From contig CAWDSG010000002.1 in assembly GCA_963804975.1 (NCBI GenBank), positions 341,015 through 405,014 of the forward strand: DNA of 64,000 nt, read 5' to 3'. The DNA comes from an uncultured bacterium (GTDB lineage Bacteria > Patescibacteriota > Minisyncoccia > Phycocordibacterales > GWA1-40-21). Positions 1,851-18,496 of the stretch are shown piece by piece. The position numbers and the translations under genes were made by a program. A model generated the notes under the pieces. It did no database searches and was not told where the DNA came from. It was given only the letters and a program-made list of their open reading frames with translations. How positions within the stretch are numbered: position 1 is the first letter of the stretch; every line of letters begins with the position of its first letter.

Positions 1851-3152
1851 TTGATAAATCTAGCGCTGAATTATTGGACAAATAAAGCATATTTTGAGAT
1901 AATGGGCAGAATGAAAAATGGAAAATTAATCGGATATAAAATACTCATTCTTTCGGCGGTGATTACGCTTATAATATTCGGATTTGGCGTATATGTCGGT
2001 AAAATTTGGTCCCATCCGAATACGAACGAGATTATCAATATTGATAACAGCAGCTCTTTATCTGTTTCCTCGTCGACTATAGATATGGCTCCTTTTTGGA
2101 ATGTCTGGAAAACTCTTGATGAAAAATTCGTTTACACGCATAAAAACGCAAAAGTAATTACCAATCAGGATAAAATATGGGGCGCAATAGAAGGCCTTAC
2201 CGCGGCATACGGAGACCCTTATACGGTTTTTATGCCTCCTACGGAAAGCAGCGAATTTCAGACAAATATAAGCGGAGATTTTGAAGGGGTCGGAATGGAA
2301 CTTGCGATCAAAGGCAGTAATATTGTCGTAGTAGCTCCGCTCAAAGGCACGCCTGCTTACAACGCCGGCATAAAAACCGGAGATATTCTTTTGTCCATTG
2401 ACGGCACATCAACAGCGGCTATGGATATAGATACTGCTGTAAATCTGATAAGGGGCAAGGCCGGCACGACCGTAAACCTTAAATTTGAAAGAGCGGGAAA
2501 TGCAAATCCGCTTGAATTCAAACTGACAAGGGCTGTTATAAATATTCCGACTATAGATACCGATACCAAAGGCGATGTGTTTATCATACGGCTTTATAAT
2601 TTCTACGCTCCGTCCGCAGATGATTTCAGAGGCGCTCTGAGAGATTTTGTGCAGTCCGGGAAATACAAATTAGTCCTTGATCTTCGAGGAAATCCAGGAG
2701 GATATTTGGATGCCGCAGTGGACATGGCGAGTTGGTTTCTTCCGCTTGGCGATGTCGTTGTCAGGGAAAATTTCGGCTCAAGCTCTCCGGAGCAGGTTTA
2801 CAGAAGCAAAGGATACAATGTTTTCAACAGCAATTTAAAAATGATAATCCTTGTGGATCAGGGTTCGGCATCGGCGGCGGAAATTCTCTCCGGAGCTCTA
2901 GAGGAACACGGCATAGCGAAACTTGTCGGCACGAGGACATTCGGAAAAGGTTCAGTGCAAGAGCTCATGCAGATTACTCCCGATACATCGCTCAAAATCA
3001 CTATTGCAAAATGGCTTACGCCAAACGGCTTGTCCATAACTGACAACGGTCTCACGCCGGATTATAATGTGCCGATGACAGATGCAGACATGCTTGCCGG
3101 AAAAGATCCGCAGATGGATAAAGCGATAGAAATATTAGATAATAATAAATAA
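1851..3152 (+). CDS. C-terminal processing peptidase (S41 family, PDZ-containing)
   Basis: N-terminal TM anchor, PDZ-like segment 'GIKTGDILLSIDG', S41 motifs 'DLRGNPGG' and 'ILVDQGSASAAEILSGAL'. True start may be internal Met (about 1902/1911). Confidence 0.85.
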   Translation: MINLALNYWTNKAYFEIMGRMKNGKLIGYKILILSAVITLIIFGFGVYVGKIWSHPNTNEIINIDNSSSLSVSSSTIDMAPFWNVWKTLDEKFVYTHKNAKVITNQDKIWGAIEGLTAAYGDPYTVFMPPTESSEFQTNISGDFEGVGMELAIKGSNIVVVAPLKGTPAYNAGIKTGDILLSIDGTSTAAMDIDTAVNLIRGKAGTTVNLKFERAGNANPLEFKLTRAVINIPTIDTDTKGDVFIIRLYNFYAPSADDFRGALRDFVQSGKYKLVLDLRGNPGGYLDAAVDMASWFLPLGDVVVRENFGSSSPEQVYRSKGYNVFNSNLKMIILVDQGSASAAEILSGALEEHGIAKLVGTRTFGKGSVQELMQITPDTSLKITIAKWLTPNGLSITDNGLTPDYNVPMTDADMLAGKDPQMDKAIEILDNNK

Positions 3153-3153
3153 T

Positions 3154-3600
3154 ATGAAAATAATTTTATTGAAAGACGTGAAGAAAATCGGCAAAAAATA
3201 TGAGATCAAGGATGTTGCCGACGGATACGCGCTAAATTCGCTCATACCGAGCGAAGTTGCCGTTCCCGCCACGCCAAGCTATATAAAATTCGTTGAAGCG
3301 AAGAAAAAGCAGGATGGAATTATAAAAGAAGAATTCAAAAAAGAGTTTGAATATGCGCTTTCAAAATTACCGAACGGCAAGCTTCACATAAGCGGAAAAG
3401 TAAGCGGTAAGGGCCACCTGTTCGCAGGAATTCAGAAAGACAGGATTATAGAGGAATTCAAAAAAGAAACCGGAGTGGTGCTTTCGGACGAGCATTTTGA
3501 ACTTGAAAAGCCAATCAAAGAAGTGGGGGAGCACACCATTGAAATAAAAATAGACGACCAAAAATACAAATTGGTTATATTTGTAAAAGCAGAGGAATAA
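3154..3600 (+). CDS. rplI: 50S ribosomal protein L9
   Basis: N-terminus 'MKIILLKDVKKIGKKYEIKDVADGYALNSLIP' matches bL9 consensus; 148 aa. Confidence 0.9.
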   Translation: MKIILLKDVKKIGKKYEIKDVADGYALNSLIPSEVAVPATPSYIKFVEAKKKQDGIIKEEFKKEFEYALSKLPNGKLHISGKVSGKGHLFAGIQKDRIIEEFKKETGVVLSDEHFELEKPIKEVGEHTIEIKIDDQKYKLVIFVKAEE

Positions 3601-3712
3601 AGGATCGCGAGGCGTTTCGTTTGAAAAGCACGGATATTTTCTTGCTAGAAAATTCCTCGAGCTCGCGCCGTCGCGCTCCCTAGGCTTTTCAAACGAAACG
3701 CCTCGCTTGCTA
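3601..3712 (+). repeat. long-hairpin intergenic element, copy A (family with copies at 9698, 59357, 17424, 52119)
   Basis: Perfect 23-bp inverted arms gcgaggcgtttcgtttgaaaagc (3607-3629) / gcttttcaaacgaaacgcctcgc (3684-3706) around a 54-nt loop carrying the family motifs ATTTTCTtGCTaGAAAAT and GCCGTCGCgCTCCcTAG; starts at the first base after the rplI stop codon. Confidence 0.8.
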
Positions 3713-3739
3713 ACAAAAAATTCCCCGAAGGGAATTTTT

Positions 3740-4012
3740 CTAAATAACATTCACAATACTTCTCCTTGTTATTGTTGAATCAAAATTATTTTTTCTTTTT
3801 GTCTTGAATTCCACTGTTCCGTCCGCAAGAGCAAAAAGCGTGTGGTCTGTGCCAACGCCAACAGATTTGCCGGCGAGTACGTCTCTGCCTTTTTGCCTCA
3901 CGATGATTTGTCCGGTTTTTACGGCTTCGCCGTTATTGATTTTCACCCCAAGATATCTTGAATTGGAATCTCTGCCGTTTTTACTTGAACCTGCTGCTTT
4001 TTTATGTGCCAT
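3740..4012 (-). CDS. rpmA: 50S ribosomal protein L27
   Basis: '[24 protein letters not shown]...' typical bL27 N-terminus; 90 aa. Confidence 0.9.
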
Positions 4013-4078
4013 AGTTGATTTTTATCTTTATAATTAATGCCTATGATTCTAACTAATCTCAAGAAAAAAGTCAATCTA

Positions 4079-4107
4079 TTGAAAGAAAAGCTAAAAACCT
4101 ATATAAT
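4079..4107 (+). promoter_or_regulatory. sigma70-like promoter for the large surface-protein gene
   Basis: TTGAAA (4079-4084), 17-nt spacer, TATAAT (4102-4107); about 25 nt upstream of ATG 4130. Confidence 0.5.
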
Positions 4108-4129
4108 CAACGTCATATAAATATAAAAA

Positions 4130-6853
4130 ATGTTAAGCTACCTTGAAAAAAGACAAAATATGATGAATAAAAATTACAAGATATTTGTTTTTCTATTATC
4201 GGTTGTTGGAGGCCTTCTGGCTTTCGGCCAATGTGTTTTTGCTTCTTCCGACGGATATGGATATTTTCGCCCTATAACGATAGATCACACAGAAGTTTCC
4301 ACAAATGATCAAGCATCTTTTCCTATTCTAGTTTGTTTCAACGGAAATTCTCCATGTGACCAATCTTTGCCGGAACTTAAAAATACATCAGATGGAGGGC
4401 ATGTCCAAAATTCAAACGGCTACGATATTATTTTTACTTCCGATATTGACGGCAACAATGTTCTTCCTTTTGAATTGGAAAATTATGTTCCGACTACGGG
4501 CGAAGCTGAGTTTTGGATAAATATACCTACATTGTCCCATTCAACTGACACGACTATTTACATGTTTTACGGAAAATCCGGTGTAAGTAGTTTCCAGGGA
4601 AATACAACGGGAACATGGAATAGCGATTACAAAGGAGTTTATCATCTTTCCACGCCGTCAGTTATTTATGTAAGGCCGACTAGGAGCAGCTATAATCCGA
4701 TAATCAGTCACGGAGGAACAGGATGGAAAGAGCGCCAAGTTCAGGAACCGGTTATTATTCCTGATCCGACTGATAATTCAAAACTTATAATGTTTTATGC
4801 TGCTATGGACGGTTCAAACGATACTGCTATTGGGTTTGCAACTTCAACTGTAGCAAATCCTGAAAGTTGGAATGAGTACAGTGGCAACCCAGTTATTCCG
4901 GGAGAAGGTGTCGGACGGCGAATAGATGCGGTTATAAATGTATCGGGTACGCTTTATCTTTATGCTACTGAAAACAGTGTTCAGGTTGTTTTATACACCT
5001 CTACTGATAACGGACTTACTTGGTCTAGAGATGCTTCAAGTCCCGTTTTAACTCCGGACGGCCAAGAATGTTCAGACGAAACTAATGTCAGTGAAGGTAG
5101 TGTTTACTGGGATGGCGGAAGCAATTGGACAATGATTTACTCTTATCGCACAAACGCAGCTTCTTTAGCGGGATTTCGATATGCAACATCTTCTGATGGA
5201 AAAACTTGGACGAAAGGCGGGTGCACAGACATTCTTTCTTTAGGGCCTGCCGGTACAAGTGATACGTCATATATGGAATGGCATCAGATTTTTAAAATAG
5301 GCTCCACTTACTATTTAAGCTATGAAGGTTATGGCTATAATTCTGAAGGAGTAGTTTGGTCAGCCAATCTTGCTTACAGCAAAAGCTTAACAAGCGGCTG
5401 GAAAAAAGCTGGAGCTAATCCGGTTTTTATACGATCATCAACTCCCGGAGCTTTTGATGAATACCATGTGGCAACGCCAGCTTTTTATAATATCGGCGGA
5501 GTGTGGTATTTATTTTATCAGGGAGGAAACGTCTACGACCCTTATGCCGCTTCAAATTGGGATTTGGGTATGGCTCGTTTGCCTGGAAGTCCGGCAGATG
5601 CCGCTATTGGCGAAGTTCATGATTCTACTTCCAATGCAAATGATTTAGTTGCAGTAAATTTAGCAACTTCTTCAGGAGAATTTGGCAGAGGATTTGTTTT
5701 TAACGGCACTTCAAGTTATGCAAGTTCTCCGATTCCCGGATCTACGGCAACAAGCAATTTTACTTTGCAATCATGGATAAAACCTAACGATTTGGATACG
5801 CCGTTTACGTTCGTACAAAATGGAGCTGATAACGGAATAGATGGAGGTTCCGGTTATGGAATCGGCCTTAATGGCAGTGCCGGAGGAGGGGGAAGGCTTA
5901 CAGCTCTTTTATCTGGAATAACTTGGCTTGATTCGGGTTCTGCATTTGTTTCCACAAGCAGTTGGCACAGCACGGCAATGGTAAGAGATGCAGGTGGCAC
6001 TATTGATTTTTATGCTGATGCGGTTCAGGCCCCTCTTACGTATTCTCAAACACCGAATGCAGCGAATACAAATTTTACAATCGGATCCCTTACAACCGGG
6101 CATGGTTTTTATAACGGATCGGTAGATGAGGTACGTATTTTAGACACTGCGCTTGGAGCAGATTGGATTGCAACTGAATACAATAACGAAAATTCTCCAT
6201 CGACTTTTTATACAGTAGGAGACGAAACCGCTTTAACGACGACTTCAAGAGGTCATCATAGGAATCTTGAGTATCTTTTGTATACAGCCGGATTCGGTGG
6301 CACGATTTCAGGAGAAAAAAGTCAGGTTGTAGTTTCTGGGGGAAGCGGTTCACTTGTCACGGCTGTTCCTGATCCTGGCTATAAATTTACAACCTGGAGC
6401 GATGGCCTAAAAACAGATTCAAGAACCGATGAAAACATATTAGCAAGTGTCAGCTTCACTGCGAATTTTGAACCTTTGTTAACTTCGTCAAATGAAAGTG
6501 AAGCTGAAACTGCTGTTTCTTCGGGAGCATCAAATACCGGCACAGGTGGCGGATTTTATGTTTCGACCTCCTCTGAAATGATAGGTTCGGGCTCCTCCAC
6601 CACTTCAAAGTTTATTTTTAATCGCGATCTTTATTTTACAAAAACAGAATCAGATGTTAAAGAGCTTCAAAAATATTTGAATAATAATGGTTTTATTCTT
6701 GCAAAAACCGGTCCTGGTTCTCCGGGGCAAGAAACTTCTTATTTCGGAATATTGACAAAAAACAGTTTAATTGGCTTCCAAAAAGCAAATAAAATTAAAC
6801 CGACAATCGGGTATTTCGGTCCCATTACAAGAAAGTTAATCAACAGTCGTTAA
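4130..6853 (+). CDS. large secreted/cell-surface multidomain protein (DUF2341-like N-domain, Asp-box beta-propeller, LamG/ConA-like lectin domain, InlB-B-like repeat, C-terminal peptidoglycan-binding domain)
   Basis: Signal peptide after Met at 4160 ('MMNKNYKIFVFLLSVVGGLLAFG'); 'GYGYFRPITIDHTEV...FPILVCF' DUF2341-type start; two Asp-box motifs 'STDNGLTWS' and 'SSDGKTWTK'; LamG-like 'NGSVDEVRILDTAL'; C-terminal PG_binding_1-like 'VKELQKYLNNNGF...GPGSPGQETSYFGILT'. Confidence 0.7.
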   Translation: MLSYLEKRQNMMNKNYKIFVFLLSVVGGLLAFGQCVFASSDGYGYFRPITIDHTEVSTNDQASFPILVCFNGNSPCDQSLPELKNTSDGGHVQNSNGYDIIFTSDIDGNNVLPFELENYVPTTGEAEFWINIPTLSHSTDTTIYMFYGKSGVSSFQGNTTGTWNSDYKGVYHLSTPSVIYVRPTRSSYNPIISHGGTGWKERQVQEPVIIPDPTDNSKLIMFYAAMDGSNDTAIGFATSTVANPESWNEYSGNPVIPGEGVGRRIDAVINVSGTLYLYATENSVQVVLYTSTDNGLTWSRDASSPVLTPDGQECSDETNVSEGSVYWDGGSNWTMIYSYRTNAASLAGFRYATSSDGKTWTKGGCTDILSLGPAGTSDTSYMEWHQIFKIGSTYYLSYEGYGYNSEGVVWSANLAYSKSLTSGWKKAGANPVFIRSSTPGAFDEYHVATPAFYNIGGVWYLFYQGGNVYDPYAASNWDLGMARLPGSPADAAIGEVHDSTSNANDLVAVNLATSSGEFGRGFVFNGTSSYASSPIPGSTATSNFTLQSWIKPNDLDTPFTFVQNGADNGIDGGSGYGIGLNGSAGGGGRLTALLSGITWLDSGSAFVSTSSWHSTAMVRDAGGTIDFYADAVQAPLTYSQTPNAANTNFTIGSLTTGHGFYNGSVDEVRILDTALGADWIATEYNNENSPSTFYTVGDETALTTTSRGHHRNLEYLLYTAGFGGTISGEKSQVVVSGGSGSLVTAVPDPGYKFTTWSDGLKTDSRTDENILASVSFTANFEPLLTSSNESEAETAVSSGASNTGTGGGFYVSTSSEMIGSGSSTTSKFIFNRDLYFTKTESDVKELQKYLNNNGFILAKTGPGSPGQETSYFGILTKNSLIGFQKANKIKPTIGYFGPITRKLINSR

Positions 6854-6880
6854 ATTTAATTTCAAAGAGTTTAAGTAAAT

Positions 6881-7321
6881 ATGGTTTTAAATTATTTTTT
6901 CCAGAAAATCAAGCCCTTTTGGAATGATATAAAAGGCGGGTTTTTAGGCGTTAAAAATAACCTAAAAATAAAGGAAGATTTGTTTATTGCCATACTTATT
7001 GTTCTTGTCGGTCTGGCTTCATTCGGTCTCGGCAAATTGTCGGTTTTGGAAGCAGAAAAAACACCTATTTCCATTATCAATAATCAAACCGTAGTTGATG
7101 AAAGTGTATCCGGAAATGTTTCAAATACAGCTTCAACAAATACAGCGACTTCCACAGGGCAGGGAATCGTATTTGGCTCAAAATCCGGCACAAAATATTA
7201 TTATCCATGGTGTTCCGGCGCAGCCAGAATAAAGCCGGAAAACAGAGTTTGGTTTAAAAGCATTGAAGACGCGAAATCCGCCGGCCTAACTCCTGCGGCA
7301 AATTGTTCGGGATTGAAATGA
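6881..7321 (+). CDS. membrane-anchored hypothetical protein with C-terminal two-Cys domain
   Basis: 146 aa; N-terminal TM 'LFIAILIVLVGLASFGLG'; S/T-rich linker; C-terminal 'YYYPWCSGAARIKPENRVWFKSIEDAKSAGLTPAANC' resembles a small secreted metal/nucleic-acid-binding-type module I cannot name with certainty. Confidence 0.5.
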   Translation: MVLNYFFQKIKPFWNDIKGGFLGVKNNLKIKEDLFIAILIVLVGLASFGLGKLSVLEAEKTPISIINNQTVVDESVSGNVSNTASTNTATSTGQGIVFGSKSGTKYYYPWCSGAARIKPENRVWFKSIEDAKSAGLTPAANCSGLK

Positions 7322-7390
7322 CGAATTTGACATATCTTTTAGTTTTGATAATCTCAAAATAGGAAGTTCGTTCAAAAAAGAGGTGTGTTT

Positions 7391-7615
7391 ATGATCAAAA
7401 AGAAACAGCTCAAAAGTAAAACTATACCATTCAGAGAAGCACATAAAATAATCGGGTGGATGGTCAGATATTGCTTAAAAATCAAAAAAAGATTACAAGA
7501 CTTAAATGATGCGGAAATAGTATTTATTATTTGCTGTGTTTTGAGCGGCCAGGAAAAATGGATATTGGATGATAGGCTAGTGTTTGGAAAATGGACAAAA
7601 AAACGCAAAAAGTAA
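7391..7615 (+). CDS. small hypothetical protein (74 aa, basic)
   Basis: RBS aaaaagagg 8 nt upstream of ATG 7391; followed by a clean rho-independent terminator. Confidence 0.4.
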   Translation: MIKKKQLKSKTIPFREAHKIIGWMVRYCLKIKKRLQDLNDAEIVFIICCVLSGQEKWILDDRLVFGKWTKKRKK

Positions 7616-7633
7616 GGTGATTTACCCGATACG

Positions 7634-7667
7634 AACGGAGAAAGATTTTTTCTCCGTTCATTTTTTT
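7634..7667 (+). terminator. rho-independent terminator
   Basis: aacggaga / tctccgtt stem with 9-nt loop, followed by T7 run. Confidence 0.7.
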
Positions 7668-7746
7668 AAATCTAAAACCAAGTTGACTTTTTTCCTTATA
7701 ATGGTAGATTTTGTATCAGAAGAATTCCAAAAAATGGAGGCAAGAA

Positions 7747-7938
7747 ATGTACTTAGAATTCAATTGCAGAAATGAGAGTTGTGATAATGGAGTTGAAATG
7801 CCTGGCACCTATTGTGAATCTTGTCGTTCACTACCTAAAAAGATAAAATTATTCGCGGTAGCGATTACACTGCTTTTTATAGTGATACCGTTTATTTTTG
7901 TGGTTTATAAAATTTTTTCGATTCCAATCGGTTTTTAA
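7747..7938 (+). CDS. small zinc-ribbon membrane protein (63 aa)
   Basis: RBS ggagg then ATG 7747; 'C-x4-C ... C-x2-C' (FNCRNESCDNGVEMPGTYCESC) followed by one TM helix 'LFAVAITLLFIVIPFIFVVYKIF'. Confidence 0.45.
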   Translation: MYLEFNCRNESCDNGVEMPGTYCESCRSLPKKIKLFAVAITLLFIVIPFIFVVYKIFSIPIGF

Positions 7939-7949
7939 GGGGAGAAATC

Positions 7950-8072
7950 ATGAAAAAACTAAGATTGTTCTTTGTTTTGTTTATTAAAATACTTTTTCCA
8001 AAAAAGCCGAACAAGAAACAAATTAAGGTTTTGAATGAAACAAATATCAACTCCGGTACTACTACCGGTTAA
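7950..8072 (+). CDS. tiny ORF (40 aa) with RBS and terminator
   Basis: ggggag RBS before ATG 7950; terminator immediately downstream (8072-8102). Confidence 0.3.
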   Translation: MKKLRLFFVLFIKILFPKKPNKKQIKVLNETNINSGTTTG

Positions 8073-8102
8073 AACACAGCAAGTAATACGCTGTGTTTTT
8101 TG
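8072..8102 (+). terminator. rho-independent terminator
   Basis: aaacacagc / gctgtgttt stem, T-run. Confidence 0.7.
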
Positions 8103-8169
8103 TTGCCAATCTTATTTTTTGTGCTAGGATAAAAATAGATTCTTATTGTTATTTTAAATGGGGGATTAC

Positions 8170-8376
8170 ATGATCAAACATTTATTTATTTCTGGGAAAG
8201 CAATAGAAACTTTGCGATTAACTCCGCGTGATTTAAAAAAAGCAATGCGATTAAGGAAAAATGAAATAGCACGAGAACGTTATCAAGAAAAACGTAAGAA
8301 ACGTTTAAGGAAAACTCGCGTTAATCTTGTAGCTATTCGTGGGCAGATGGACTGCCCAAGACATAATGATTTTTGA
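8170..8376 (+). CDS. small basic hypothetical protein (68 aa)
   Basis: ATG 8170 after gggggattac; Lys/Arg-rich 'RERYQEKRKKRLRKTR'; own terminator. Confidence 0.4.
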   Translation: MIKHLFISGKAIETLRLTPRDLKKAMRLRKNEIARERYQEKRKKRLRKTRVNLVAIRGQMDCPRHNDF

Positions 8377-8391
8377 TTCAGACGGATAAGA

Positions 8392-8421
8392 GCGCGGAAC
8401 CGTAGGTTCCGCGCCTTTTTA
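8392..8421 (+). terminator. rho-independent terminator
   Basis: gcgcggaacc / ggttccgcgc stem then cttttta. Confidence 0.75.
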
Positions 8422-8442
8422 TTTCTGTGTTAAAATAAACTT

Positions 8443-9039
8443 ATGATTATCGTAGACGTAGAGGCAAGCGGGGTGGATTTGAATAAAAGCTCAATCTTAT
8501 CAATTGGAGCGTTTGATTTTGATAATCCTAAAAATAAATTTTATGGCGAGTGCAGAATCTGGCAGGGCGCGCATCTGAATAAGGACTCAATGAAAGTAAA
8601 CGGCTTTACTGATGAAGAAGCGCAGGATCCTAAAAAGCAATCCGATGGGGAATTGGTTAAGACCTTTATTGAATGGGCGCTTACCTTCTGCAAGGAACAT
8701 ACTTTTGCCGGACAGAATCCTTCTTTTGACAGGGATTTCATACATTATGCGGCGACAAGGGCCCATCTTGACTGGCCATTTGCTTTCAGGACAATTGACC
8801 AGCATTCTCTTTGCTTTATGCATATGATTAAGAGGGGAATAACTCCGCCCATTCTCAAGAAAAGGACTGACCTTGATTCCGATAGGATTATGGAATATGT
8901 CGGAATCCCGACCGAACCTCATCCTCACAATGCCTTAAATGGGGCAAAAGTGGCCGGAGAAGCTATTTCAAGATTGCTTTATGATAAACCATTCCTTCCG
9001 GAATTCAAAAAATACCCTATCCCATGGCTTAAAAAGTAA
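8443..9039 (+). CDS. DEDD-family 3'-5' exonuclease (DnaQ/PolIII epsilon-like)
   Basis: 'MIIVDVEASGVD...' Exo I motif D-x-E, later 'FDRDFI' and 'HNALNGAKV' (Exo III YxxxD/H-type) consistent with DnaQ-like fold; 198 aa. Confidence 0.7.
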   Translation: MIIVDVEASGVDLNKSSILSIGAFDFDNPKNKFYGECRIWQGAHLNKDSMKVNGFTDEEAQDPKKQSDGELVKTFIEWALTFCKEHTFAGQNPSFDRDFIHYAATRAHLDWPFAFRTIDQHSLCFMHMIKRGITPPILKKRTDLDSDRIMEYVGIPTEPHPHNALNGAKVAGEAISRLLYDKPFLPEFKKYPIPWLKK

Positions 9040-9080
9040 AGGCCTAAATTTGGATTAAAAAGCATAATTAGGATTAGATA

Positions 9081-9110
9081 AAATACGGCTTATTAGAGCC
9101 GTATTTTATA
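9081..9110 (+). terminator. rho-independent terminator
   Basis: aaatacggc / gccgtattt stem then tttta. Confidence 0.6.
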
Positions 9111-9190
9111 TTATTTACTGCCCCAAGCTCTTGACTTTTTTAATCAAACGTGCTAGCATTATAAGGAATCCGTCTAAGACGGATTTTATT

Positions 9191-9697
9191 ATGATAGAAC
9201 TTATAACAACGTCGTTTTTCGTTTTCTCATCTATCTATGGAGGGCCGACAGGAGCTGTGGCAGATAATCAAGCTGCAACTTCTCCGGAACCTACGATAGC
9301 TAAAGAGGCGACAACGACCACAAACCTGCCTACCGGCCAGGCAGGAATACCGACAAACGAAGGAATCAAAGCTAAAGCGATAGCTTACTTCAAAAACACG
9401 CCGATACTTGCGGATATTGCCGGATGCGAATCAAGATTCAGGCAGTATGACAAGAACGGCAAAGTATTGATTGGCGAGGTCAATAAAGGCGATATCGGAG
9501 TCATGCAGATAAACAAATATTATCATGCAGACAAAGCGGAATCGCTCGGTTATGACCTCAATACTGCGGAAGGCAATATGGCATATGCCAAGTATCTCTA
9601 TGAGAAGGAAGGCACAAAGCCATGGAATTCGTCATCGGCTTGCTGGAAAGGAGGAGATACGCAATCTTCCTCGACAGATCAGGTCGCAATGAGATAA
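9191..9697 (+). CDS. secreted Rpf-like / lysozyme-like transglycosylase-domain protein
   Basis: 'IAGCESRFRQY...GDIGVMQINKYYH...KPWNSSSACW' resembles the resuscitation-promoting-factor transglycosylase-like domain (AxCES ... G.MQ ... W...C). Track ORF begins with TTG at 9131; ATG 9191 gives a signal-peptide-like N-terminus. Confidence 0.55.
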   Translation: MIELITTSFFVFSSIYGGPTGAVADNQAATSPEPTIAKEATTTTNLPTGQAGIPTNEGIKAKAIAYFKNTPILADIAGCESRFRQYDKNGKVLIGEVNKGDIGVMQINKYYHADKAESLGYDLNTAEGNMAYAKYLYEKEGTKPWNSSSACWKGGDTQSSSTDQVAMR

Positions 9698-9810
9698 AAG
9701 CTCGCTCGGATATTCAATTTTGAGATCCGCATAATTTTCTGCTGAAAATTTGCTCAGGACTTGTGCCGTCGCACTCCGTAGCTCTCAAAATTGAATGTCC
9801 TCGCTCGTGC
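9698..9810 (+). repeat. long-hairpin intergenic element, copy B
   Basis: Starts at base after stop (9695-9697); 20-bp arms ggatattcaattttgagatc (9708-9727) / gctctcaaaattgaatgtcc (9781-9800); loop has ATTTTCTGCTGAAAAT and GCCGTCGCaCTCCgTAG; flanked by ctcgctc direct repeats. Confidence 0.85.
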
Positions 9811-9895
9811 TAATGGTTAGGGAATAGCTGGCTTATAGTAGTTGTGTCGCACAATATATCTTTGCGACACGATATGCTAAGGAAGCCCTTCTAAC

Positions 9896-10516
9896 TCATT
9901 CTTTAAAATCAAATAGGTCTTCTTCGCTAAAACGAACTTTGGGTAATTTAGCATGAGTATCATCAGAACTTCTGTACCCTATTGGAAGAAGGACTTTCGG
10001 TTCCAGATTGTCTGGCAAGTTCAGAGCTTTTTTAACGGATGTAAAATCCACTGCTTCCATAGCACAAGAATCGACTTTAAGTTCGGCACAAGCCGCTATA
10101 GCAAAGCCAAGAGCTATATATGTCTGTTCGGTTGCCCATTCCGCTCCCATTTTTTCCGAGAATTCAACAGCGCCGTTTTCATAGTTATATTCGGGGTCGT
10201 TTGTAATATCAGCTCTGCCTGTTTTGGAAGCTATTTGAACGAAATCTTTGGCTCTTTTTCTTATATCTAAATCTGCACAGAACACCAATACATGCGAACA
10301 AGTTATTATTTGTTTTTGATCCCAAAAAGCTCGTGGATTTAAATCCTTTTTAAGTTGGTCATTTTCAATTACAGTAATGTGATATGGTTGAATGCCAAAC
10401 GAACTTGGAGATAGACGAATGGTTTCTAATATTTTTTTTAAAATATCTTCCGGCACTTTTCTGCCGTCAAATTCTTTTGTGGCATATCGCCAATTTAGAT
10501 TTTCAATAAATCCCAT
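9896..10516 (-). CDS. NAD(P)H nitroreductase family protein
   Basis: 206 aa; 'RYATKEFDGRKVPEDILKKILE...SPSSFGIQPYHITVI' classic nitroreductase N-terminus. Confidence 0.85.
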   Translation of the reverse strand: MGFIENLNWRYATKEFDGRKVPEDILKKILETIRLSPSSFGIQPYHITVIENDQLKKDLNPRAFWDQKQIITCSHVLVFCADLDIRKRAKDFVQIASKTGRADITNDPEYNYENGAVEFSEKMGAEWATEQTYIALGFAIAACAELKVDSCAMEAVDFTSVKKALNLPDNLEPKVLLPIGYRSSDDTHAKLPKVRFSEEDLFDFKE

Positions 10517-10544
10517 TTTATTTCCTCAATCTTGCTTTCTTGCT

Positions 10545-10814
10545 TTACGGTGTTGTGCTTGTTGCTGCCGTGTGAAGACCGGCTTGAATTCCATTCCAGA
10601 GGACGCCGACAATAAGCGTGTTCCAAATCCACATAACAGGGCCGGAAATCCATGACCAAATAGTAACTAATATGTTCCAAAGCCAAGAAAGGTTTGCCTG
10701 CACCGGCTGGGAATGTATGACGTTGTTTATATTAATGCCAAAATAACCCAAGACGATGAGTATCAAAATGATAATTATTACGTCCATTATCAATCCTCCT
10801 TTGTTATATTTCAT
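10545..10814 (-). CDS. small membrane protein, hypothetical
   Basis: 89 aa, two hydrophobic helices, Trp-rich. Confidence 0.4.
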   Translation of the reverse strand: MKYNKGGLIMDVIIIILILIVLGYFGININNVIHSQPVQANLSWLWNILVTIWSWISGPVMWIWNTLIVGVLWNGIQAGLHTAATSTTP

Positions 10815-10869
10815 ATAAAAATTTGCTTATAGATGAATAAATAACCTTTGTCAAATTATACCATAATTT

Positions 10870-12210
10870 TTATTGCAAATCATCTATTGCCGACTTTATC
10901 CTTTTAAGAGATTCAGTTTTACCAAGAGTATTCAACAGAATAAACGGATCGGGGGACTTTTCCCTTCCTGAAAGCGATACTCGGAGAGGCCATAAAACAT
11001 TGCCTCTCCCCTTCTTTTCGGCAAACGGCATCAAAGTTTCTTTCAGTTTTTCCGATATAAAATTTTTATCGGATATTTTTTCTAAAATTTTAGATATTGC
11101 AGAAAGATTTTCTTTGGCTTCAGTTTGAGTACTTTCTTTTTTCCAGACAATCATATTTTTATCTATCTTTGGCGCTTCAAAAAAGTACTGTATATCTCTA
11201 TCAGCAACCATTTTGTCTATATCGGACCAGACGCTTATCCTTTCTTTGATTATCGGCTCAATTTTCTCTATTATTTTCTTGTCTTGGCAATTTTTCGGCA
11301 ACCTATTCCCTATTTCCTCAATAATTTTTTGAGCGGGAAGTTTCCTCATATATTCCTTGTTGAACCACAAAAGTTTTTCTATATTGAAAACTGCACCGGC
11401 TTTCTGCACTTTCATAATATCAAATTTTTCTATAATTTCGTCCATAGGCATAATTTCTTCAGTCCCTCCTGGATTCCATCCGCAGAATGCGAGAAAATTT
11501 ACCATCGCTTCCGGCAAGAATCCCTGTTCCCTGTAATATTTCAGAGAAACCATTTCGCCTAATTGCCTTTTTGAAAGTTTTGATCTGTTGGTATTCAAAA
11601 TAAACGGCATATGGGCATATATCGGTCTTGGAGCGCCGATTGCTTCCTGTATGAGAATCTGCCTCGGAGTATTATAAATTCCATCCTCCCCTCTTATTAT
11701 GTGAGTCACTCTCATTTCAAAATCATCCACAACGACGGCAAAATGATATATCGGCTCGCTCAAACTTTTTGCAATGACAAAATCGCCGAGCTCTGCGGTA
11801 TCCACCGCCACTTCGCCTCGTATCATATCTTCAAATACGACTTTTTTGCCCGGATTTTTAAGGCGTATGACCTCGGTTCTCTGGCCTTCTTCCTTTATTT
11901 CCTCTTTTGAAACATAAGCTTTTCCTTCAGCAATGATTTTTTCCAGATATTTTTTGTAAGTGGCGGTATGTTCGGATTGCTTATAAATATTCTTAAAATC
12001 AATATCAATACCGAGCCATTTCAGGCCGTCTATGATATCGTCGGCATATTCTTTCTTTGAACGCTCTTTGTCGGTGTCTTCAAGCCGGAAAAGAAGCTCG
12101 CCTTTGTTTTTTTTGACGAAAAAATAATTAAAAAGCGCCGTTCGGGCATTGCCGATATGAAAAGGACCGGTCGGCGAAGGCGGAAATCTTGCTATAATTT
12201 TATTCTTCAT
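10870..12210 (-). CDS. gltX: glutamyl-tRNA synthetase
   Basis: 'RFPPSPTGPFHIGNARTALFNYFF' (HIGH region) and 'KLSKR' (KMSKS) class-I GluRS motifs. Confidence 0.9.
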   Translation of the reverse strand: MKNKIIARFPPSPTGPFHIGNARTALFNYFFVKKNKGELLFRLEDTDKERSKKEYADDIIDGLKWLGIDIDFKNIYKQSEHTATYKKYLEKIIAEGKAYVSKEEIKEEGQRTEVIRLKNPGKKVVFEDMIRGEVAVDTAELGDFVIAKSLSEPIYHFAVVVDDFEMRVTHIIRGEDGIYNTPRQILIQEAIGAPRPIYAHMPFILNTNRSKLSKRQLGEMVSLKYYREQGFLPEAMVNFLAFCGWNPGGTEEIMPMDEIIEKFDIMKVQKAGAVFNIEKLLWFNKEYMRKLPAQKIIEEIGNRLPKNCQDKKIIEKIEPIIKERISVWSDIDKMVADRDIQYFFEAPKIDKNMIVWKKESTQTEAKENLSAISKILEKISDKNFISEKLKETLMPFAEKKGRGNVLWPLRVSLSGREKSPDPFILLNTLGKTESLKRIKSAIDDLQ

Positions 12211-13330
12211 GCTTTAAACCAAGATTAAGTATCTCTTTTGCGATCAGATGCGCGGCGTCTGTTTTGATGAAGCTTTTTGCGCCATCGGACATTTTTTTCG
12301 CGAGAGCTTTATCATCCATAATCCTTTTTATTTCCGCCAGAAGAATATTCGGCGATAAGTTCCCTTCTTCAATGACTGTGGCTCCGCCGAACTCGGCATA
12401 ATAATAGGCGTTTTGCCTCTGATGGTCGCCGTTTGAATTGGTAATCGGAATTATAATGCTCGGGATTCCCCAAGTGGCTATTTCAAAAATTGTTGAACCA
12501 GCCCGCGATACGATAAGATTTGCGGCGCCTGCGGCCATTGTCATATTGAGATTGTCCAGATAATCAAACGGCCTGTACCGGTCTTTGTGCGCATTGTCGG
12601 CAAGGATGACGCTTGCGGCGCCGAGCGTTTCTCCCATATTCGCCTTCCCTATCTGATGGATTACATAATACTGTGCCACAAGGTCAGGGAGAATATTCAG
12701 TATTTTTTCATTGATGATTTGAGCGCCAAGCGAGCCGCCGAGCACCAATATCGCCGGAATATTTTCTTTAAGATTGAGGAACTGCCTTGCGCTTTCCCGC
12801 GTCTCTGCCATCACGATATTTTTTCTGACCGGATTTCCGGTAACGGCGACTTTTGACGCGTTGAAAAATTTTGCCGCCGAAGGATATGATACGGCGATTC
12901 TTTTTGCGAATTTTCCGGCCCAAAGATTCGTCCTTCCCGGCGAAGAATCGGACTCATGTATGATAATAGGTATTCTGAAAAATCTAGCCGCTACAAGCAC
13001 GGGAAAACTCGTATACGCTCCTTTGCTGAAAACAACATCCGGAAATACATGGAATACTTTTATTGCCGCCGAAAAAATACCGGCTATTGCTTTGAAAATG
13101 TCAAAAAAATTGAGAACGGAAAAATATCTTCGCAACTTACCAGCGGGAATCTTTATGAATTGTACGTTGTTTTCAACGAGCATTTCCGCGTCGTGCGGAG
13201 AATCGGACATATAAAAAAGCTCCACCGGAAGCAATTTTTCCTCTTTGACTATTTTATTTATTTCTTCCGCGACGGCTATAAGCGGATAAAAATGCCCGCC
13301 TGATCCGCCGCCTGTCAATAAAATCTTCAT
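12200..13330 (-). CDS. murG: UDP-GlcNAc:undecaprenyl-PP-MurNAc-pentapeptide GlcNAc transferase
   Basis: 'MKILLTGGGSGGHFYPLIAVAEE' N-terminal G-loop typical of MurG; 376 aa; overlaps gltX by 11 nt. Confidence 0.9.
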   Translation of the reverse strand: MKILLTGGGSGGHFYPLIAVAEEINKIVKEEKLLPVELFYMSDSPHDAEMLVENNVQFIKIPAGKLRRYFSVLNFFDIFKAIAGIFSAAIKVFHVFPDVVFSKGAYTSFPVLVAARFFRIPIIIHESDSSPGRTNLWAGKFAKRIAVSYPSAAKFFNASKVAVTGNPVRKNIVMAETRESARQFLNLKENIPAILVLGGSLGAQIINEKILNILPDLVAQYYVIHQIGKANMGETLGAASVILADNAHKDRYRPFDYLDNLNMTMAAGAANLIVSRAGSTIFEIATWGIPSIIIPITNSNGDHQRQNAYYYAEFGGATVIEEGNLSPNILLAEIKRIMDDKALAKKMSDGAKSFIKTDAAHLIAKEILNLGLKHEE

Positions 13331-13338
13331 CTTATATT

Positions 13339-14436
13339 TTAATTAGCAAATTTTGAAATATTCAGAACAATTCCCAATTCCGCAAGCATTATAAACATTG
13401 ATGTTCCTCCTTGGCTGAAAAATGCAAGCGGAATGCCGGAAAAAGGCACGATGCCAAGCACTGAGCCGATGTTTGTAAAAGATTGGATCGCTATGATTAT
13501 AACAATTCCAACCACTAAAAGTCCACTGAAATTATCGGGCGCTTTAATGGCGATGCGCAAACCCTTGAATATGAAAAAAAGCAGAAATCCGATGACGCAG
13601 ATGCAGCCGACAAAACCAAGCTCTTCGGCCAGAACGGCAAAAATAGAATCGGTTATGGATTCCGGGAGAAAATTGTATTTCTGGATGCTTTGTCCCAGGC
13701 CTCTTCCGAAAAATTGCCCAGAACCAATCGCAATCAGGGATTGTTGGACCTGATATCCCGACGTCAGGGAATTTTCCGCCGGATGTATGAATGTTTCGAT
13801 CCTTGACATTACATAAGGCCGTGAAAACGCGATTGCCGCAAGACAGACGGCGCCGATGATTAAAATCAAAAAAATATGCTTGAATTTGCCGCCGGCAGCC
13901 AGAAACATGGCGATTCCCGTAAGGCAGATGATGATAAAGGAATCCGTGTCAGGCTCCAGCAAAAGCGGCACAGCAATAATTCCAAGTATGACTATAAGCG
14001 GTATCAGGCCGAATTTGATATCTGTAACTTTATCTTTAACGGAAGAAAGCCAGGCCGCGAAGTATACGACAAAGCCGATATTCAACAGAGCGACCGGCTC
14101 CAAAGAGAGCCCGGCAAAAACGATCCATCGGCGGGCGCCGTTTATTTTTGCTCCGACATGAGGAATAAAGACCGCAATCGTTATGAGAAGCGAGGCAAGA
14201 AAAATAAACAAAGCGTATTTTTTGAAAAATTTATAATTTATTTTTGAAAAGACGAAGCAAGCCAAAAGACCGAGTATGATTCCGAAAAATGCCTGCTTGA
14301 AAGCGATGGAACTGAACTCTGCGCTGTTCTCGGCCAAAAGCCCCATTGAAGCGGACATAAAAATCACAAAACCGAAAACAACAAGCGCTATGATTGAAAA
14401 CAGGAATGTTTTGTCTACCTCAAAAATCTTGGACAT
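13339..14436 (-). CDS. ftsW: SEDS-family peptidoglycan glycosyltransferase (FtsW/RodA)
   Basis: 365 aa, about 10 TM helices, placed between mraY and murG. Confidence 0.8.
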   Translation of the reverse strand: MSKIFEVDKTFLFSIIALVVFGFVIFMSASMGLLAENSAEFSSIAFKQAFFGIILGLLACFVFSKINYKFFKKYALFIFLASLLITIAVFIPHVGAKINGARRWIVFAGLSLEPVALLNIGFVVYFAAWLSSVKDKVTDIKFGLIPLIVILGIIAVPLLLEPDTDSFIIICLTGIAMFLAAGGKFKHIFLILIIGAVCLAAIAFSRPYVMSRIETFIHPAENSLTSGYQVQQSLIAIGSGQFFGRGLGQSIQKYNFLPESITDSIFAVLAEELGFVGCICVIGFLLFFIFKGLRIAIKAPDNFSGLLVVGIVIIIAIQSFTNIGSVLGIVPFSGIPLAFFSQGGTSMFIMLAELGIVLNISKFAN

Positions 14437-14488
14437 TCTGGTTGAAAAATTTTAATTTGCGATTTTTTTAATCCGTTTTTGTGCCAGC

Positions 14489-15547
14489 TTAACTCACTAA
14501 AACCAAAATAGTTCCGAGAATAACCGACATGACCGCAATAATCCAGTATCTCATCACTATTTTTTCTCTTGACCACCCGATAGCTTCAAGATGGTGATGA
14601 AGCGGCGCAACCTTGAATACTTTTTTATTGAAAAATTTGTACGAAACAATCTGAATGATATCGGAAAGCGAAGTGGCGACCAAAGGAAAAGCGATAATCG
14701 GCAGTACAAGAACGGAATTCGTTATAAACGCAATGACGGAAATCAAGACGGTAAGCCCAAGCATGCCGGTTTCTCCCATATAAAACCGAGCCGGCGGGAC
14801 ATTGAACCAAAGAAACGCCAAAATTCCTCCAGAGGTCGCTGCGCACAAAGCAGAGATATCTATCTGATGATTGGCGAAAGAAATAATGGCGTATGCGGTG
14901 AAAATTGAAGCCAGAATTCCGCCCGAAAGCCCGTCAATTCCGTCAACAACACTTGTGGAAAAAACCGCAAGCATAATGATGACGAAAAAAGGTATGAACA
15001 GCAGACCGATCGTCGCGTCTCCGAAAAACGGTACGTGGATATAATTTACGCCAAGCTTGTAATAAAACCAAAGGCTGATAAAAAAGCCTATAGCGATGAC
15101 CGTAACAATTTTTATTTTTCTGTAAATCAATTTATCTTCCGCGTACGATCCTTTTCCGATTATCTGCAGTATGTCGTCAATAAGCCCTATAATCGCTCCG
15201 GCAATGAATGCGGCAAGCGGAACCAGCGTCTGGTTTCTGCTCAAAAAATTCAATTTGGAAGTCATATCGTTCGGAAAAATTATAGACAGGAGATAAATCA
15301 ATCCGATGGAAAGAAGCACCGATATCCAGATAATAATTCCGCCAATCCTTGGAGTCGAAAGCTCGCCTTTGGTATTATGGATTTTTGCGAAATTGTCGTT
15401 TGTATCCGATAAAGTCCTCGGATTTTTTTTCCACATCTTATGCCTGTAAAAAAAATCGGTGAAAAAAGGCGTAATGAAAATAGCCAAAAAAAATGTCAAA
15501 GCGGACGGTATAACGACTTTTAATACATCTATCATCATTTTATTCAA
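14489..15547 (-). CDS. mraY: phospho-N-acetylmuramoyl-pentapeptide transferase
   Basis: 'VDGIDGLSGG' MraY signature; 352 aa polytopic. Confidence 0.9.
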   Translation of the reverse strand: MNKMMIDVLKVVIPSALTFFLAIFITPFFTDFFYRHKMWKKNPRTLSDTNDNFAKIHNTKGELSTPRIGGIIIWISVLLSIGLIYLLSIIFPNDMTSKLNFLSRNQTLVPLAAFIAGAIIGLIDDILQIIGKGSYAEDKLIYRKIKIVTVIAIGFFISLWFYYKLGVNYIHVPFFGDATIGLLFIPFFVIIMLAVFSTSVVDGIDGLSGGILASIFTAYAIISFANHQIDISALCAATSGGILAFLWFNVPPARFYMGETGMLGLTVLISVIAFITNSVLVLPIIAFPLVATSLSDIIQIVSYKFFNKKVFKVAPLHHHLEAIGWSREKIVMRYWIIAVMSVILGTILVLVS

Positions 15548-17379: not shown

Positions 17380-17423
17380 ATTTCATAATTTAACATATTT
17401 TTACACAAAAGTCCTCTATTTTT

Positions 17424-17533
17424 AACAAGCAAAGGAAGTAATTTTAAATGCCTTGGGAGGAGCGACGGCGACGTACAGAGAAAATTTTCAGCAGAAAATT
17501 TTCGTGCATTTAAAATTACTTCCTTTGCGAGTC
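17424..17533 (-). repeat. long-hairpin intergenic element, copy D (minus orientation)
   Basis: Perfect 23-bp arms gcaaaggaagtaattttaaatgc (17429-17451) / gcatttaaaattacttcctttgc (17506-17528); loop (read on minus strand) ATTTTCTGCTGAAAAT ... GCCGTCGCtCCTCC; lies 3' of the minus-strand DacA-like gene, before asnB. Confidence 0.8.
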
Positions 17534-17572
17534 TTATTCTTTTTGACTTTTTATTTCTTGCGAGACAATTAT

Positions 17573-18496
17573 TCATTCGGAAAGTTTCTCAAGTGCAACA
17601 TGCACGAGCTGTTCCATATCCGAAAACCTGCCTTTTTCGGTCGAACCGAGCAGAGAGATGATCACCGGATGCATGGGGCCGGCGTCAAATGCGATGACAA
17701 GGTTTCCTCCGGCAAGATCGGTATAGCCGGTTTTTGAAGCAATCAGCCCGGGAATCTTGTTTACAAGCATATCGGTATTTATGGCGATATGCTTTATGCC
17801 GTTTTCCGAAACAAAAGATGCCGATTCCTCGGTTGTTTTAGATACAAGAGAAGGATAATTTTCCAATATTTTCTGCAAAAGCACGGCGATATCGCATGCG
17901 GAACTGTAAGCGCCGCCCATATCCGTATTTACATCAAGCCCGGTTTCATTGAAAAAAATTGTGTTTGCAAGTTCAAGCGTTTTGGCTTTTTTATTCATCA
18001 AATCTATTGTACTTGAACTCCGTTCTCCTTCATATTCGTTAAGCGTGCGAGAAAGAGCATGAATGCCGTCATTTGAAGAGCTCATTAAACTGAAATCAAG
18101 AAGATCCACAGCACTCCATTTTTCGCCGGAAAGAAGCCCGGTATCGCCTTCCTCGGCTATATCTTCTTTGCTGATTACAATCGTGCTTGTGGCGGGCAAG
18201 TTTTCGGTAATGATGAGCCCGGACATAAGCTTTGTTATGGAGGCAATCGGCAATTGTTCATGCTCATTTTTTGCAAAAAGAGCTTTTTTTCCGTTTACAT
18301 CGTATACATAAAACGATTTTGCCTGAATGCTCGCGAGCTCGGGCGAATAATCGTAAGTTTCATTCGCTGTTTGTTTGTTTTTTTCGGAAGTGTTCGTAAA
18401 TATTCTGACGCCTAAAATGACAATAATTATGGCAAGGATAAAAAAGAGCGAAAATAAAATAATTTCATTTCTATTTAAAATTTTTTCCTCATCCAT
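17573..18496 (-). CDS. D-alanyl-D-alanine carboxypeptidase (S11, PBP5-like)
   Basis: 'SITKLMS' SxxK active-site motif, N-terminal TM anchor; 307 aa. Confidence 0.8.
   Translation of the reverse strand: MDEEKILNRNEIILFSLFFILAIIIVILGVRIFTNTSEKNKQTANETYDYSPELASIQAKSFYVYDVNGKKALFAKNEHEQLPIASITKLMSGLIITENLPATSTIVISKEDIAEEGDTGLLSGEKWSAVDLLDFSLMSSSNDGIHALSRTLNEYEGERSSSTIDLMNKKAKTLELANTIFFNETGLDVNTDMGGAYSSACDIAVLLQKILENYPSLVSKTTEESASFVSENGIKHIAINTDMLVNKIPGLIASKTGYTDLAGGNLVIAFDAGPMHPVIISLLGSTEKGRFSDMEQLVHVALEKLSE

Follow-up and report, generated by a model that had tools for sequence, protein, structure and literature searches.

A putatively mobile palindromic element with a covarying three-way-junction core, found between and within housekeeping genes of Patescibacteria

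Introduction

Short palindromes that carry no gene and recur through a bacterial chromosome have been described in several lineages, and the closest comparison for the elements reported here comes from Rickettsia. The Rickettsia palindromic elements RPE-1 to RPE-10 (Ogata et al. 2000, 2002; PMC10969869) are, as summarized in PMC10969869, geneless palindromes, roughly 100-150 bp long, that recur many times in one small genome; they occur between genes and also in frame within unrelated housekeeping genes, where they add a conserved peptide while the protein is kept, and their mode of spread is given in that summary as unknown. The title of Ogata 2002, cited there, presents in-frame palindromic repeats as a peculiarity of Rickettsia. 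Here we analyze a 64 kb stretch of DNA, hereafter the window, from an uncultured bacterium of the Patescibacteriota (contig CAWDSG010000002.1 of assembly GCA_963804975.1), in which a preliminary description made from the sequence alone had pointed out five dispersed hairpins. We judge it moderately likely that these hairpins are copies of a non-autonomous palindromic insertion element of RPE/MITE-like type (MITE, miniature inverted-repeat transposable element), selfish or semi-selfish and widespread in Patescibacteria, also known as the candidate phyla radiation (CPR). The element is probably mobile, and apparently it has not been described before for CPR: our literature search found no account of such elements in CPR/Patescibacteria, although its coverage was incomplete and the novelty is accordingly provisional.

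As in RPE, a palindromic repeat lies in frame, here in nine housekeeping gene families with a shared predicted peptide (...DGDGQRKFSAENFRG...). The element nevertheless belongs to another superphylum, its conservation lies in a covarying three-way-junction core and not in the palindrome arms, which vary from copy to copy, it is spread across phylum-level lineages rather than one genus, and it has an additional subclass in tRNA arrays; the comparison is one by description, which makes RPE an analogue and not a family to which the element belongs. Bacterial MITEs (Correia/NEMIS of Neisseria, ERIC, RUP and BOX) are likewise, in the outline of PMC10969869, small hairpin-forming sequences that are non-coding and multi-copy; orthologous sites may have or lack them, and they often lie at gene ends and sometimes form in-frame fusions with genes. 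The element is of comparable size and abundance, being 110-135 nt long without coding capacity of its own and present in five copies in 64 kb. MITEs are, however, defined by conserved terminal inverted repeats that match a parent insertion sequence (IS) and by target-site duplications, whereas the arms here are variable, no parent IS was found, and a TAA in a subset of copies is the most that could count as a duplication.

Two further systems share single-stranded folding. Repetitive extragenic palindromes and bacterial interspersed mosaic elements (REP/BIME), together with their RAYT (TnpA-REP) transposase, are dispersed single-strand hairpin palindromes with single-strand polarity, often located between convergent genes; REPs measure 20-40 nt, are extragenic, have a conserved stem sequence and a 5' tetranucleotide, and the RAYT gene is normally present. 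In contrast, the unit described here is 110-135 nt long with a branched core and intragenic copies, and no HUH gene was found in about 1 Mb of loci. The integron attC site is a recombination site folded from a single strand, 3' of genes, in which structure is conserved and stem sequence varies. Its apex is variable, whereas the apex is conserved here, and the element comes with neither an integrase nor cassette arrays.

Five copies of one folded unit

A covariance model (R1) was built from 81 non-redundant cores of other genomes plus the window copies, and the 64 kb were searched with filters off. Exactly five copies were detected, at 74.3, 72.7, 65.0, 57.5 and 51.3 bits (E 1e-10 to 2.5e-16), with the next-best match in the window at 19 bits, which upholds the dispersed five-member family as first described. 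The unit, 110-135 nt in length, comprises short flanks, two complementary arms and a conserved core of about 55 nt, and folds internally into a three-way junction bearing two small hairpins, hp1 and hp2. The mini-hairpin and the GCCGWCGC motif that had been noted in the loop are both present: hp1 reads ...AAUUUUC-UGCU-GAAAAUU... (as DNA ATTTTC-TGCT-GAAAAT), and the motif, GCCGTCGC, proves to be a covarying 4-bp hairpin in its own right, hp2, whose stem variants among the five copies (GCGC/GCGC, GTGC/GCAC, ATGC/GCAT and GCAC/GTGC) are paired substitutions. Read on one strand, the hp1 loop is C-UGYU-G, and the hp2 loop is C-CGWC-G atop a UC/UCC internal loop. The outer stems of the four clear copies are 23, 18, 18 and 23 bp long and enclose loops of 54-57 nt. 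RNA folding z-scores of the five copies against dinucleotide shuffles are -7.0, -4.8, -5.6, -8.1 and -5.4, with none of 200 shuffles folding as well.

These four copies belong to class A, characterized by the long enclosing stem; positions are numbered on the window throughout. Copy 3601 (3601-3714, plus strand, 65 bits, stem 23/23 bp) consists of the flank AGGATC (3601-3606), left arm (3607-3629), core (3630-3683, with hp1 at 3632-3656 and hp2 at 3665-3676), right arm (3684-3706) and flank TTGCTAAC (3707-3714). Outside the element, at 3715-3739, lies an ordinary bidirectional terminator hairpin (AAAAAATTCCCC-GAA-GGGAATTTTT), called by the terminator scan on the minus strand at 3734-3722. Copy 9698 (9693-9815, plus strand, 74.3 bits) comprises the flank AAGCTCGCTC (9698-9707), left arm (9708-9725), core (9726-9782), right arm (9783-9800) and flank TCGCTCG (9801-9807), with a TAA on both sides (9695-9697 and 9811-9813). 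Its whole unit is homologous to copy 59357 (59352-59474, plus strand, 72.7 bits; left arm 59367-59384, core 59385-59441, right arm 59442-59459, flank TCGCTCG 59460-59466), a recent duplicate with arms in common; homology extends across about 122 nt including the arms, and stops there. The compensatory pair reported between these two copies, C-G against T-A, is confirmed, and 9698 has one U.G wobble besides. Copies 3601, 9698 and 59357 do begin on the base directly 3' of a TAA stop codon, as had been noticed. Copy 17424 (17422-17533, minus strand, 57.5 bits) lies between an S11 peptidase gene and asnB, with its left arm at 17528-17506, core at 17505-17452, right arm at 17451-17429, and the flanks GACTC and TTGT-TAA. 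Its arms share 12 of 23 positions with those of 3601, all 11 differences are compensated, and both stems are paired at 23/23 positions; the complementarity of the outer stems thus stands, but the view that they are unrelated between copies fails for this pair.

Copy 52119 (52119-52247, minus strand, 51.3 bits), previously taken for a degenerate member, is instead a normal representative of a tRNA-linked class B, with its core at 52150-52220 and a local variable hairpin 3' of the core. The neighboring tRNA-Asn(GTT) gene (52256-52328, plus strand) is the source of its arm sequences: the copy is bracketed by tRNA-Asn 5' bases, direct at 52121-52131 (TCCTGGAGTAG) and inverted at 52229-52245 (CCGCGAGCTACTCTGGA, 17/18 matching).

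A covarying core across Patescibacteria

Beyond the window, an exact pattern joining both motifs was found in at least 118 stretches of a one-genome-per-species collection. Among the matches listed, nearly all are metagenome-assembled genomes (MAGs) of Saccharibacteria and of Parcubacteria lineages (Adler-, Nomura-, Kaiser-, Yonath-, Taylor- and Zambryskibacteria, Paceibacterota and Minisyncoccia), spanning a G+C content of about 35-56 % as judged from MAG names. The covariance model gave 116 + 20 matches in these motif-selected loci, or at least 130 copies in the loci fetched, including 12 further copies without the exact search motif, and covariation was upheld in the added copies. Of the records labelled outside these lineages, L049 and L060 are chance matches not recognized by the model, L007 (30 bits) is also attributed to chance, and L014 and L035 hold genuine copies in bins whose labels could not be verified. 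A blastn search of annotated phage and plasmid records gave no match to the element, and two pattern matches considered as viral carriers were dismissed as chance since the covariance model did not recognize them.

An alignment of 81 distinct cores with explicit structure has 88.8 % of its cells paired, and 13 of 17 pairs are doubly changed. Its covariation score is 0.339 compared with 0.099 ± 0.008 in shuffles (0/500 as high), and falls to at most 0.097 when partners are slid by 1-3 columns. The apex of hp1 covaries in divergent copies as well (TTTCC-TGCT-GGAAA, TTCGCC-TGCT-GGCGAA, AAAATC-TGTT-GATTTT). That both inner hairpins covary indicates a single-stranded DNA or RNA form; judging from these alignments, what is conserved is the fold with its loop nucleotides rather than a double-stranded palindrome, and the core would work as a single strand, be it RNA or DNA.

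Class A arms across 73 copies measure 11-39 bp, with a mean of 22 bp. Class B is organized as GGTCAC-hp1-GCGACC, next hp2, then a local variable hairpin, and is located in tRNA arrays: a tRNA lies within 150 nt in 19/27 copies, and 27/28 neighboring tRNAs are on the strand opposite the search motif. Direct repeats of a tRNA 3' end, 17-19 nt long and stopping in the T-loop, border two class B copies (L059 and L115). The hairpins hp1 and hp2 are never separated around a gene, and solo sites number 3 in 131. Composite arrangements were also observed: around position 7404 of L083, in minus orientation, a second divergent core (hp1 apex ATCGC-TGCT-GCGAT) is nested within hp2 of another copy, and at 6634-6691 of L013 the site-1 copy has an additional perfect hairpin inserted in hp2.

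Copies in frame within housekeeping genes

The preliminary description had placed the family 3' of genes, which does not hold for the family at large, since roughly one copy in four is internal to an open reading frame (ORF) of a housekeeping gene (33 open spans in a frame-by-frame check). The hosts fall in nine families: UvrD, RecG, Pol I, DnaE, PheT, MetK, Fmt, KsgA/RsmA and a PrmC/HemK-like methyltransferase. Seven are confirmed by a Pfam match on either side of the insert (Pol I, PheT, PrmC/HemK-like, MetK, Fmt, KsgA/RsmA and UvrD), while RecG and DnaE as hosts, like second copies in several families, were identified in alignments or by visual inspection. The Pol I insert sits in the linker between the 5'-nuclease and polymerase domains. 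In protein alignments the insert is present in some orthologues and missing from others (helicase genes, for example, occur both ways), at varied positions per gene, and its length equals that of arms plus core, which shows that the arms belong to the insertion and not to a pre-existing host hairpin.

Every in-gene copy identified keeps an open frame without stops, nearly always the same one (...DGDGQRKFSAENFRG...), and hp1 is predicted to encode K-F-S-A-E-N-F in either orientation. The 41-residue insert peptide returned no candidate from a protein-database word index. The core is flipped between genomes at identical sites in Pol I, KsgA and UvrD, as confirmed by flank alignments, and some in-gene copies are apparently decaying (UvrD site 2 in L042 and L101). 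Under strict scoring of orthologous in-frame sites, the 62-nt core is 60-97 % identical and the host coding flanks 48-77 %, with arm zones at 34-70 % against a shuffle baseline of about 45 %.

Within the window, the methylpurine-DNA glycosylase (55641-56219) matches its Pfam profile in two separate stretches, and in the Fmt-like protein (50295-51227) only part of the N-terminal domain profile is matched. Either protein could conceal old, decayed insertions; the covariance model found no copy in either gene.

Presence and absence in relatives

Among GltX-syntenic loci of 80 relatives (50-79 % identity, gene order kept), 915 kb of sequence contain one copy, and 79 kb from relatives with 81-89 % identical L9 contain none, compared with five per 64 kb in the window. 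At the site between the convergent genes L9 and L27, the window and an 89 % relative (L202) carry the element, which is missing from L211, L212, L213 and L209 (85, 83, 83 and 81 % relatives); in these four the entire 50-58-nt spacer is one perfect hairpin terminator. In more distant relatives the spacer is likewise a plain hairpin terminator, and in the window it consists of the element plus the small separate terminator. The L202 contig ends 33 nt past the L9 stop with TAA-AAACTCGCTCGG-CAAATCATTTTGCAAAAG-TCC, that is, the flank motif, the left arm and the first core bases, and its break therefore lies within the element. At the 3' end of hyp188, compared through an anchoring conserved downstream motif, and downstream of dacA, relatives have plain terminators or nothing, and no copies; at the site of copy 9698 they have a plain terminator. 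The hyp188 stop codon is at the same place in the element-free orthologue, so the element starts after the host's own TAA. Relatives compared at the 17424 site lack both asnB and the element. Presence or absence at orthologous sites, a feature also of MITEs, is thus seen at the L9/L27, hyp188 and dacA sites and in helicase genes. The comparison of sister sites favors an insertion element, which has multiplied in particular genomes and whose unit, arms included, is either present or absent.

The genes asnB (15544-17379) and nitroreductase (9896-10516), which abut copies 17424 and 9698, are missing from most relatives' otherwise conserved dacA...gltX...hyp188-L27-L9 order, and appear to be lineage-specific acquisitions beside element copies. 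Several short-read contigs (L202, L203, L204 and L001) end at or within a few tens of bases of copies or GC-rich hairpins, L001, a Logan contig, being broken at both flanking copies; the element is a practical cause of assembly fragmentation in CPR.

Arm variation and template switching

Across 73 stems the arms form 1518 Watson-Crick pairs, 79 wobble-type pairs and 28 mismatches, a pattern that the preliminary description had ascribed to selection on structure. That reading holds for the core, in which pairing is kept through double changes, and is weakened for the arms by the behavior of plain terminators. Ordinary terminators at the same orthologous sites are perfect hairpins of 19-26 bp with stems unrelated between close relatives. 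Since they too are perfect with unrelated stems, perfect variable stems are general to palindromes of this lineage, and variable but complementary arms need not mean selection at the RNA level. Terminators in the window at 7633-7659, 8392-8414 and 9078-9109 are also unusually long perfect hairpins, with stems of 10-14 bp called, and those of relatives (L122, L151, L156, L211, L212 and L209) have stems of up to 26 bp, frequently with A- and T-runs on either side.

Switching of DNA polymerase from one template to another between inverted-repeat arms is reported to homogenize arms, to expand them and to invert the spacer (as outlined in PMC8604942 and PMC13100816), and can create and maintain perfect RNA hairpins (in the account of PMC8794818). 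An adjacent TC->GA change distinguishes the left flank of copy 3601 from its orthologue in L202; with this change the flank is exactly complementary to the right flank, and the stem grows from 18 to 23 bp. This extension, the flipped cores and the compensated divergence between the arms of 3601 and 17424 all fit template switching, which we infer may explain the behavior of the arms. A polymerase that switches template would copy one arm from the other, so that arms could diverge and still remain perfectly paired, and the same process would lengthen arms and flip the core in place. The element resembles known inverted-repeat template switching in arm homogenization to perfect pairing, multi-nucleotide arm extension and spacer inversion. 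Template switching is, however, a mutational process and not an element family, and it leaves the conserved core and the arrival at new sites unexplained.

Insertion of the core into a pre-existing host hairpin, such as a terminator or tRNA T-arm, was considered for class A and rejected: element-free orthologues are without the arms too, copies 9698 and 59357 have arms in common, conserved flanks lie outside the arms, and arms match their own ±1 kb flanks no better than other loci.

Strand polarity and element ends

In the orientation first chosen, arm mismatches are A.C in 59 cases and G.T in 20. The reverse-complement strand, rather than the one in the preliminary description, folds more stably in 69/73 copies (mean -5.3 kcal/mol, p = 6e-12). 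Neither the core (A.C 30 vs G.U 22) nor the class B P1 helix (A.C 18, G.T 16) provided a polarity signal, which is visible only in the arms and in whole-element folding. In the window the better-folding strand is the minus strand at 3601, 9698 and 59357 and the plus strand at 17424 and 52119. It is co-oriented with neighboring tRNAs in 27/28 class B cases, and is the sense strand in 13 vs 4 clear in-gene hosts and in 30 vs 19 tandem intergenic contexts. This polarity could reflect selection on a transcribed or single-stranded form, or a transcription-linked mutation bias. Orientation to flanking genes is mixed across about 130 copies (30 / 19 / 18 / 11).

The stem ends are also defined, with C at position -1 in 47 %, T at +1 in 67 %, and a purine-pyrimidine outermost pair in about 80 %. 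The CTCGCTC flanks that had been reported as short direct repeats are indeed present, but are better described as the stem-base motif of a copy subset than as a random duplication: CGCTC on the left and TCGCT on the right occur in 10-11/73 copies from several genomes vs 3.7 expected (about threefold), and CTCGCTCG direct repeats flank copies 9698, 59357 and L037. A TAA stands on both sides of 24 % of non-ORF copies vs 6 % of background, with correlated spacing from the stem. Insertion at a TAA or TA target would account for the three window copies that start directly after a stop codon, although this is suggestive only.

Search for a mobilizing enzyme and for known RNA classes

The window proteins are housekeeping only, and a transposase partner sought near the copies and in the window was not found as a local enzyme: these regions contain no transposase, recombinase or reverse transcriptase save Xer neighbors at a few loci. 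ORF clustering near copies gave no recurrent transposase, and about 1 Mb of loci contain no HUH-type gene. A Xer-type recombinase gene adjoins copies at 4 loci. In L065, L086 and L119 the copy occupies the same short spacer between genes for a Xer-type tyrosine recombinase and exonuclease III (xer - element - xth), which is probably one inherited placement and is the sole recombinase association observed. With arms near the random baseline and no transposase gene near copies, the element lacks the conserved terminal repeats of a MITE, and no parent IS was found.

The element does not qualify as a canonical intrinsic terminator: a terminator scan of 3000-18500 called none of the three copies located there, there is no T-run, and the loops are 54-57 nt. 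Together with the mixed orientation, this speaks against the bidirectional-terminator or 3'-untranslated-region (3'-UTR) role initially proposed. With Rfam 15, only tRNAs reached the gathering threshold, both in the window (two tRNAs) and in six class B loci, which bears out the earlier inability to place the family in a known RNA class; a permissive scan of copy 17424 gave only spurious miRNA-type matches far below threshold. A ribozyme, riboswitch or tRNA-like core has no Rfam support, and placing the hp1 loop in anticodon-loop register breaks the stem by inspection. A glmS ribozyme at copy 17424 was discarded as the gene downstream is asnB, not glmS. The R''/R' boxes of integron attC sites (RYYYAAC / GTTRRRY) occur in 0/73 copies in either orientation, and the window holds no integrase gene.

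Other features of the window

A second conserved non-coding motif, TAGGGAATAG...GTGTCGCACAATATATCTTTGCGACAC, lies at 9826-9872 between copy 9698 and the nitroreductase stop, and contains the hairpin GTGTCGCA-N12-TGCGACAC. It is present at the orthologous place in L122, L128, L137, L140 and L142 despite a different neighboring gene, and could be an operator, a promoter or a small RNA. The cumulative GC skew has its minimum near 48 kb (about 47000-49000), where gene orientation also flips from minus-strand (about 10-48.7 kb) to plus-strand (from 48.8 kb). This switch may mark a replication origin or terminus; dnaA was not identified among the window ORFs checked.

Weighing the explanations

In the reading that we favor, an enzyme encoded elsewhere would move the element in trans by recognizing the folded core, and the hairpin may incidentally replace the long terminator hairpins usual at these gene ends. 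Several observations weigh against a selfish insertion. No autonomous parent element or mobilizing enzyme was found among the loci described above; no abutting direct repeat, as expected of a target-site duplication, exceeds chance in the copies examined; the TAA...TAA enrichment is confined to a subset; and the arms, which in a MITE would usually bind the transposase, are the least conserved part. The core is moreover clearly more conserved than the surrounding essential gene at 5/8 orthologous in-frame pairs (97 % core vs 72-76 % gene in the best, the remaining three pairs being similar), which is unlike the expectation for a decaying selfish insertion. Near-identical cores in phylum-level lineages of 35-56 % GC suggest either a host-level function or very frequent transfer or gene conversion, and the 69/73 strand folding bias and 27/28 tRNA co-orientation would fit a transcribed RNA.

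Conservation of this kind raises the prospect, which we hold to be rather unlikely, that the core is a CPR-wide functional three-way-junction module, read as one strand (single-stranded DNA or RNA) by a conserved protein and under purifying selection often above that of its host genes. In that case the core would be more than parasite baggage, set in a hairpin whose arms are constantly rewritten, and the element would form a new category of structured genomic signal or of recombination substrate without a guide, confined to a superphylum that accounts for much of bacterial diversity. A related explanation, which we consider unlikely, is a domesticated or host-beneficial site whose folded core (single-stranded DNA or RNA) binds a conserved CPR protein, serving for example recombination, DNA uptake, chromosome organization or RNA handling, retained by selection at any site it reaches, and spreading mainly by gene conversion and horizontal transfer. 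The higher conservation of the core than of flanking essential coding sequence at most compared sites and the sharing of near-identical cores by Saccharibacteria and Parcubacteria would both be accounted for, as would the covariation of both hairpins around invariant loop nucleotides, the defined stem ends, and the CGCTC/TCGCT loop at the stem base, which reads identically 5'->3' on both strands. A beneficial site is harder to reconcile with near absence from close syntenic relatives, where the element is evidently not essential, with locations as functionally unlike as gene ends, tRNA spacers and protein loops, with the in-gene decay at UvrD site 2, and with the lack of any candidate partner protein. 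The same covariation of core pairs, the strong folding z-scores and the better folding of one strand could also be read as those of a structured non-coding RNA, or of a cis-acting 3'-UTR or terminator of the adjacent gene, with the long stem selected at the RNA level for stability or termination. In three of the four class A window copies the element immediately follows a stop codon and separates convergent genes, and it takes the place of a terminator hairpin at the same sites in relatives. We find this decidedly unlikely, for orientation relative to genes is mixed, and the better-folding strand is antisense to the upstream gene in three window copies and to both neighbors at 17424; the copies lack a T-tail and those scanned were not called as terminators, a separate terminator adjoins copy 3601, arm covariation is not specific to the element, Rfam gives no match, and many copies occupy essential coding sequences, where a 20-30 bp RNA duplex is a liability.

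Integration could instead be guided by a tyrosine recombinase acting on the folded single strand, as happens at attC or CTX-phage attP, with the element as a miniature integrative element whose crossover would fall at the tRNA T-loop in class B and at CTCGCTCG-like sequences in class A. The tRNA 3'-end repeats of L059 and L115, which stop in the T-loop, the CTCGCTCG repeats around 9698, 59357 and L037, the unpaired loop at the hairpin base and the Xer-type gene beside copies at 4 loci are what such a mechanism would leave. It is made very unlikely by the lack of the attC R''/R' signature in all 73 copies and of a flanking direct repeat in most, by the Xer neighbors being one conserved orthologous placement in related genomes, and by copy 52119, which carries an inverted and a direct copy of the tRNA 5' end and no 3'-end duplication. 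CPR genomes are known for insertions in their rRNA genes, and a highly structured element within essential genes could similarly be an intron-like intervening sequence, excised from RNA or bypassed with the protein unaffected. This is extremely improbable: a length of 110 nt falls short of group I or II introns, no ribozyme family matched, most copies are intergenic, and in-gene copies keep the stop-free frame, nearly always ...DGDGQRKFSAENFRG..., that would be expected if they are translated.

Implications

The RPE/MITE-like insertion element that we favor has practical consequences for the study of CPR genomes, in which it can create spurious ORFs and inflate the apparent novelty of protein sequences. 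For RNA discovery it counsels caution, as arm covariation alone is weak evidence of RNA function in this lineage. The conserved covarying core, captured in a 68-position covariance model, provides a handle for finding the partner enzyme by phylogenetic profiling. A second case of in-frame palindromes, much broader than the first and in CPR bacteria with their small genomes and dependence on hosts, would point to a recurrence of such elements in reduced genomes, and would offer hundreds of natural insertions for studying how proteins tolerate inserts.

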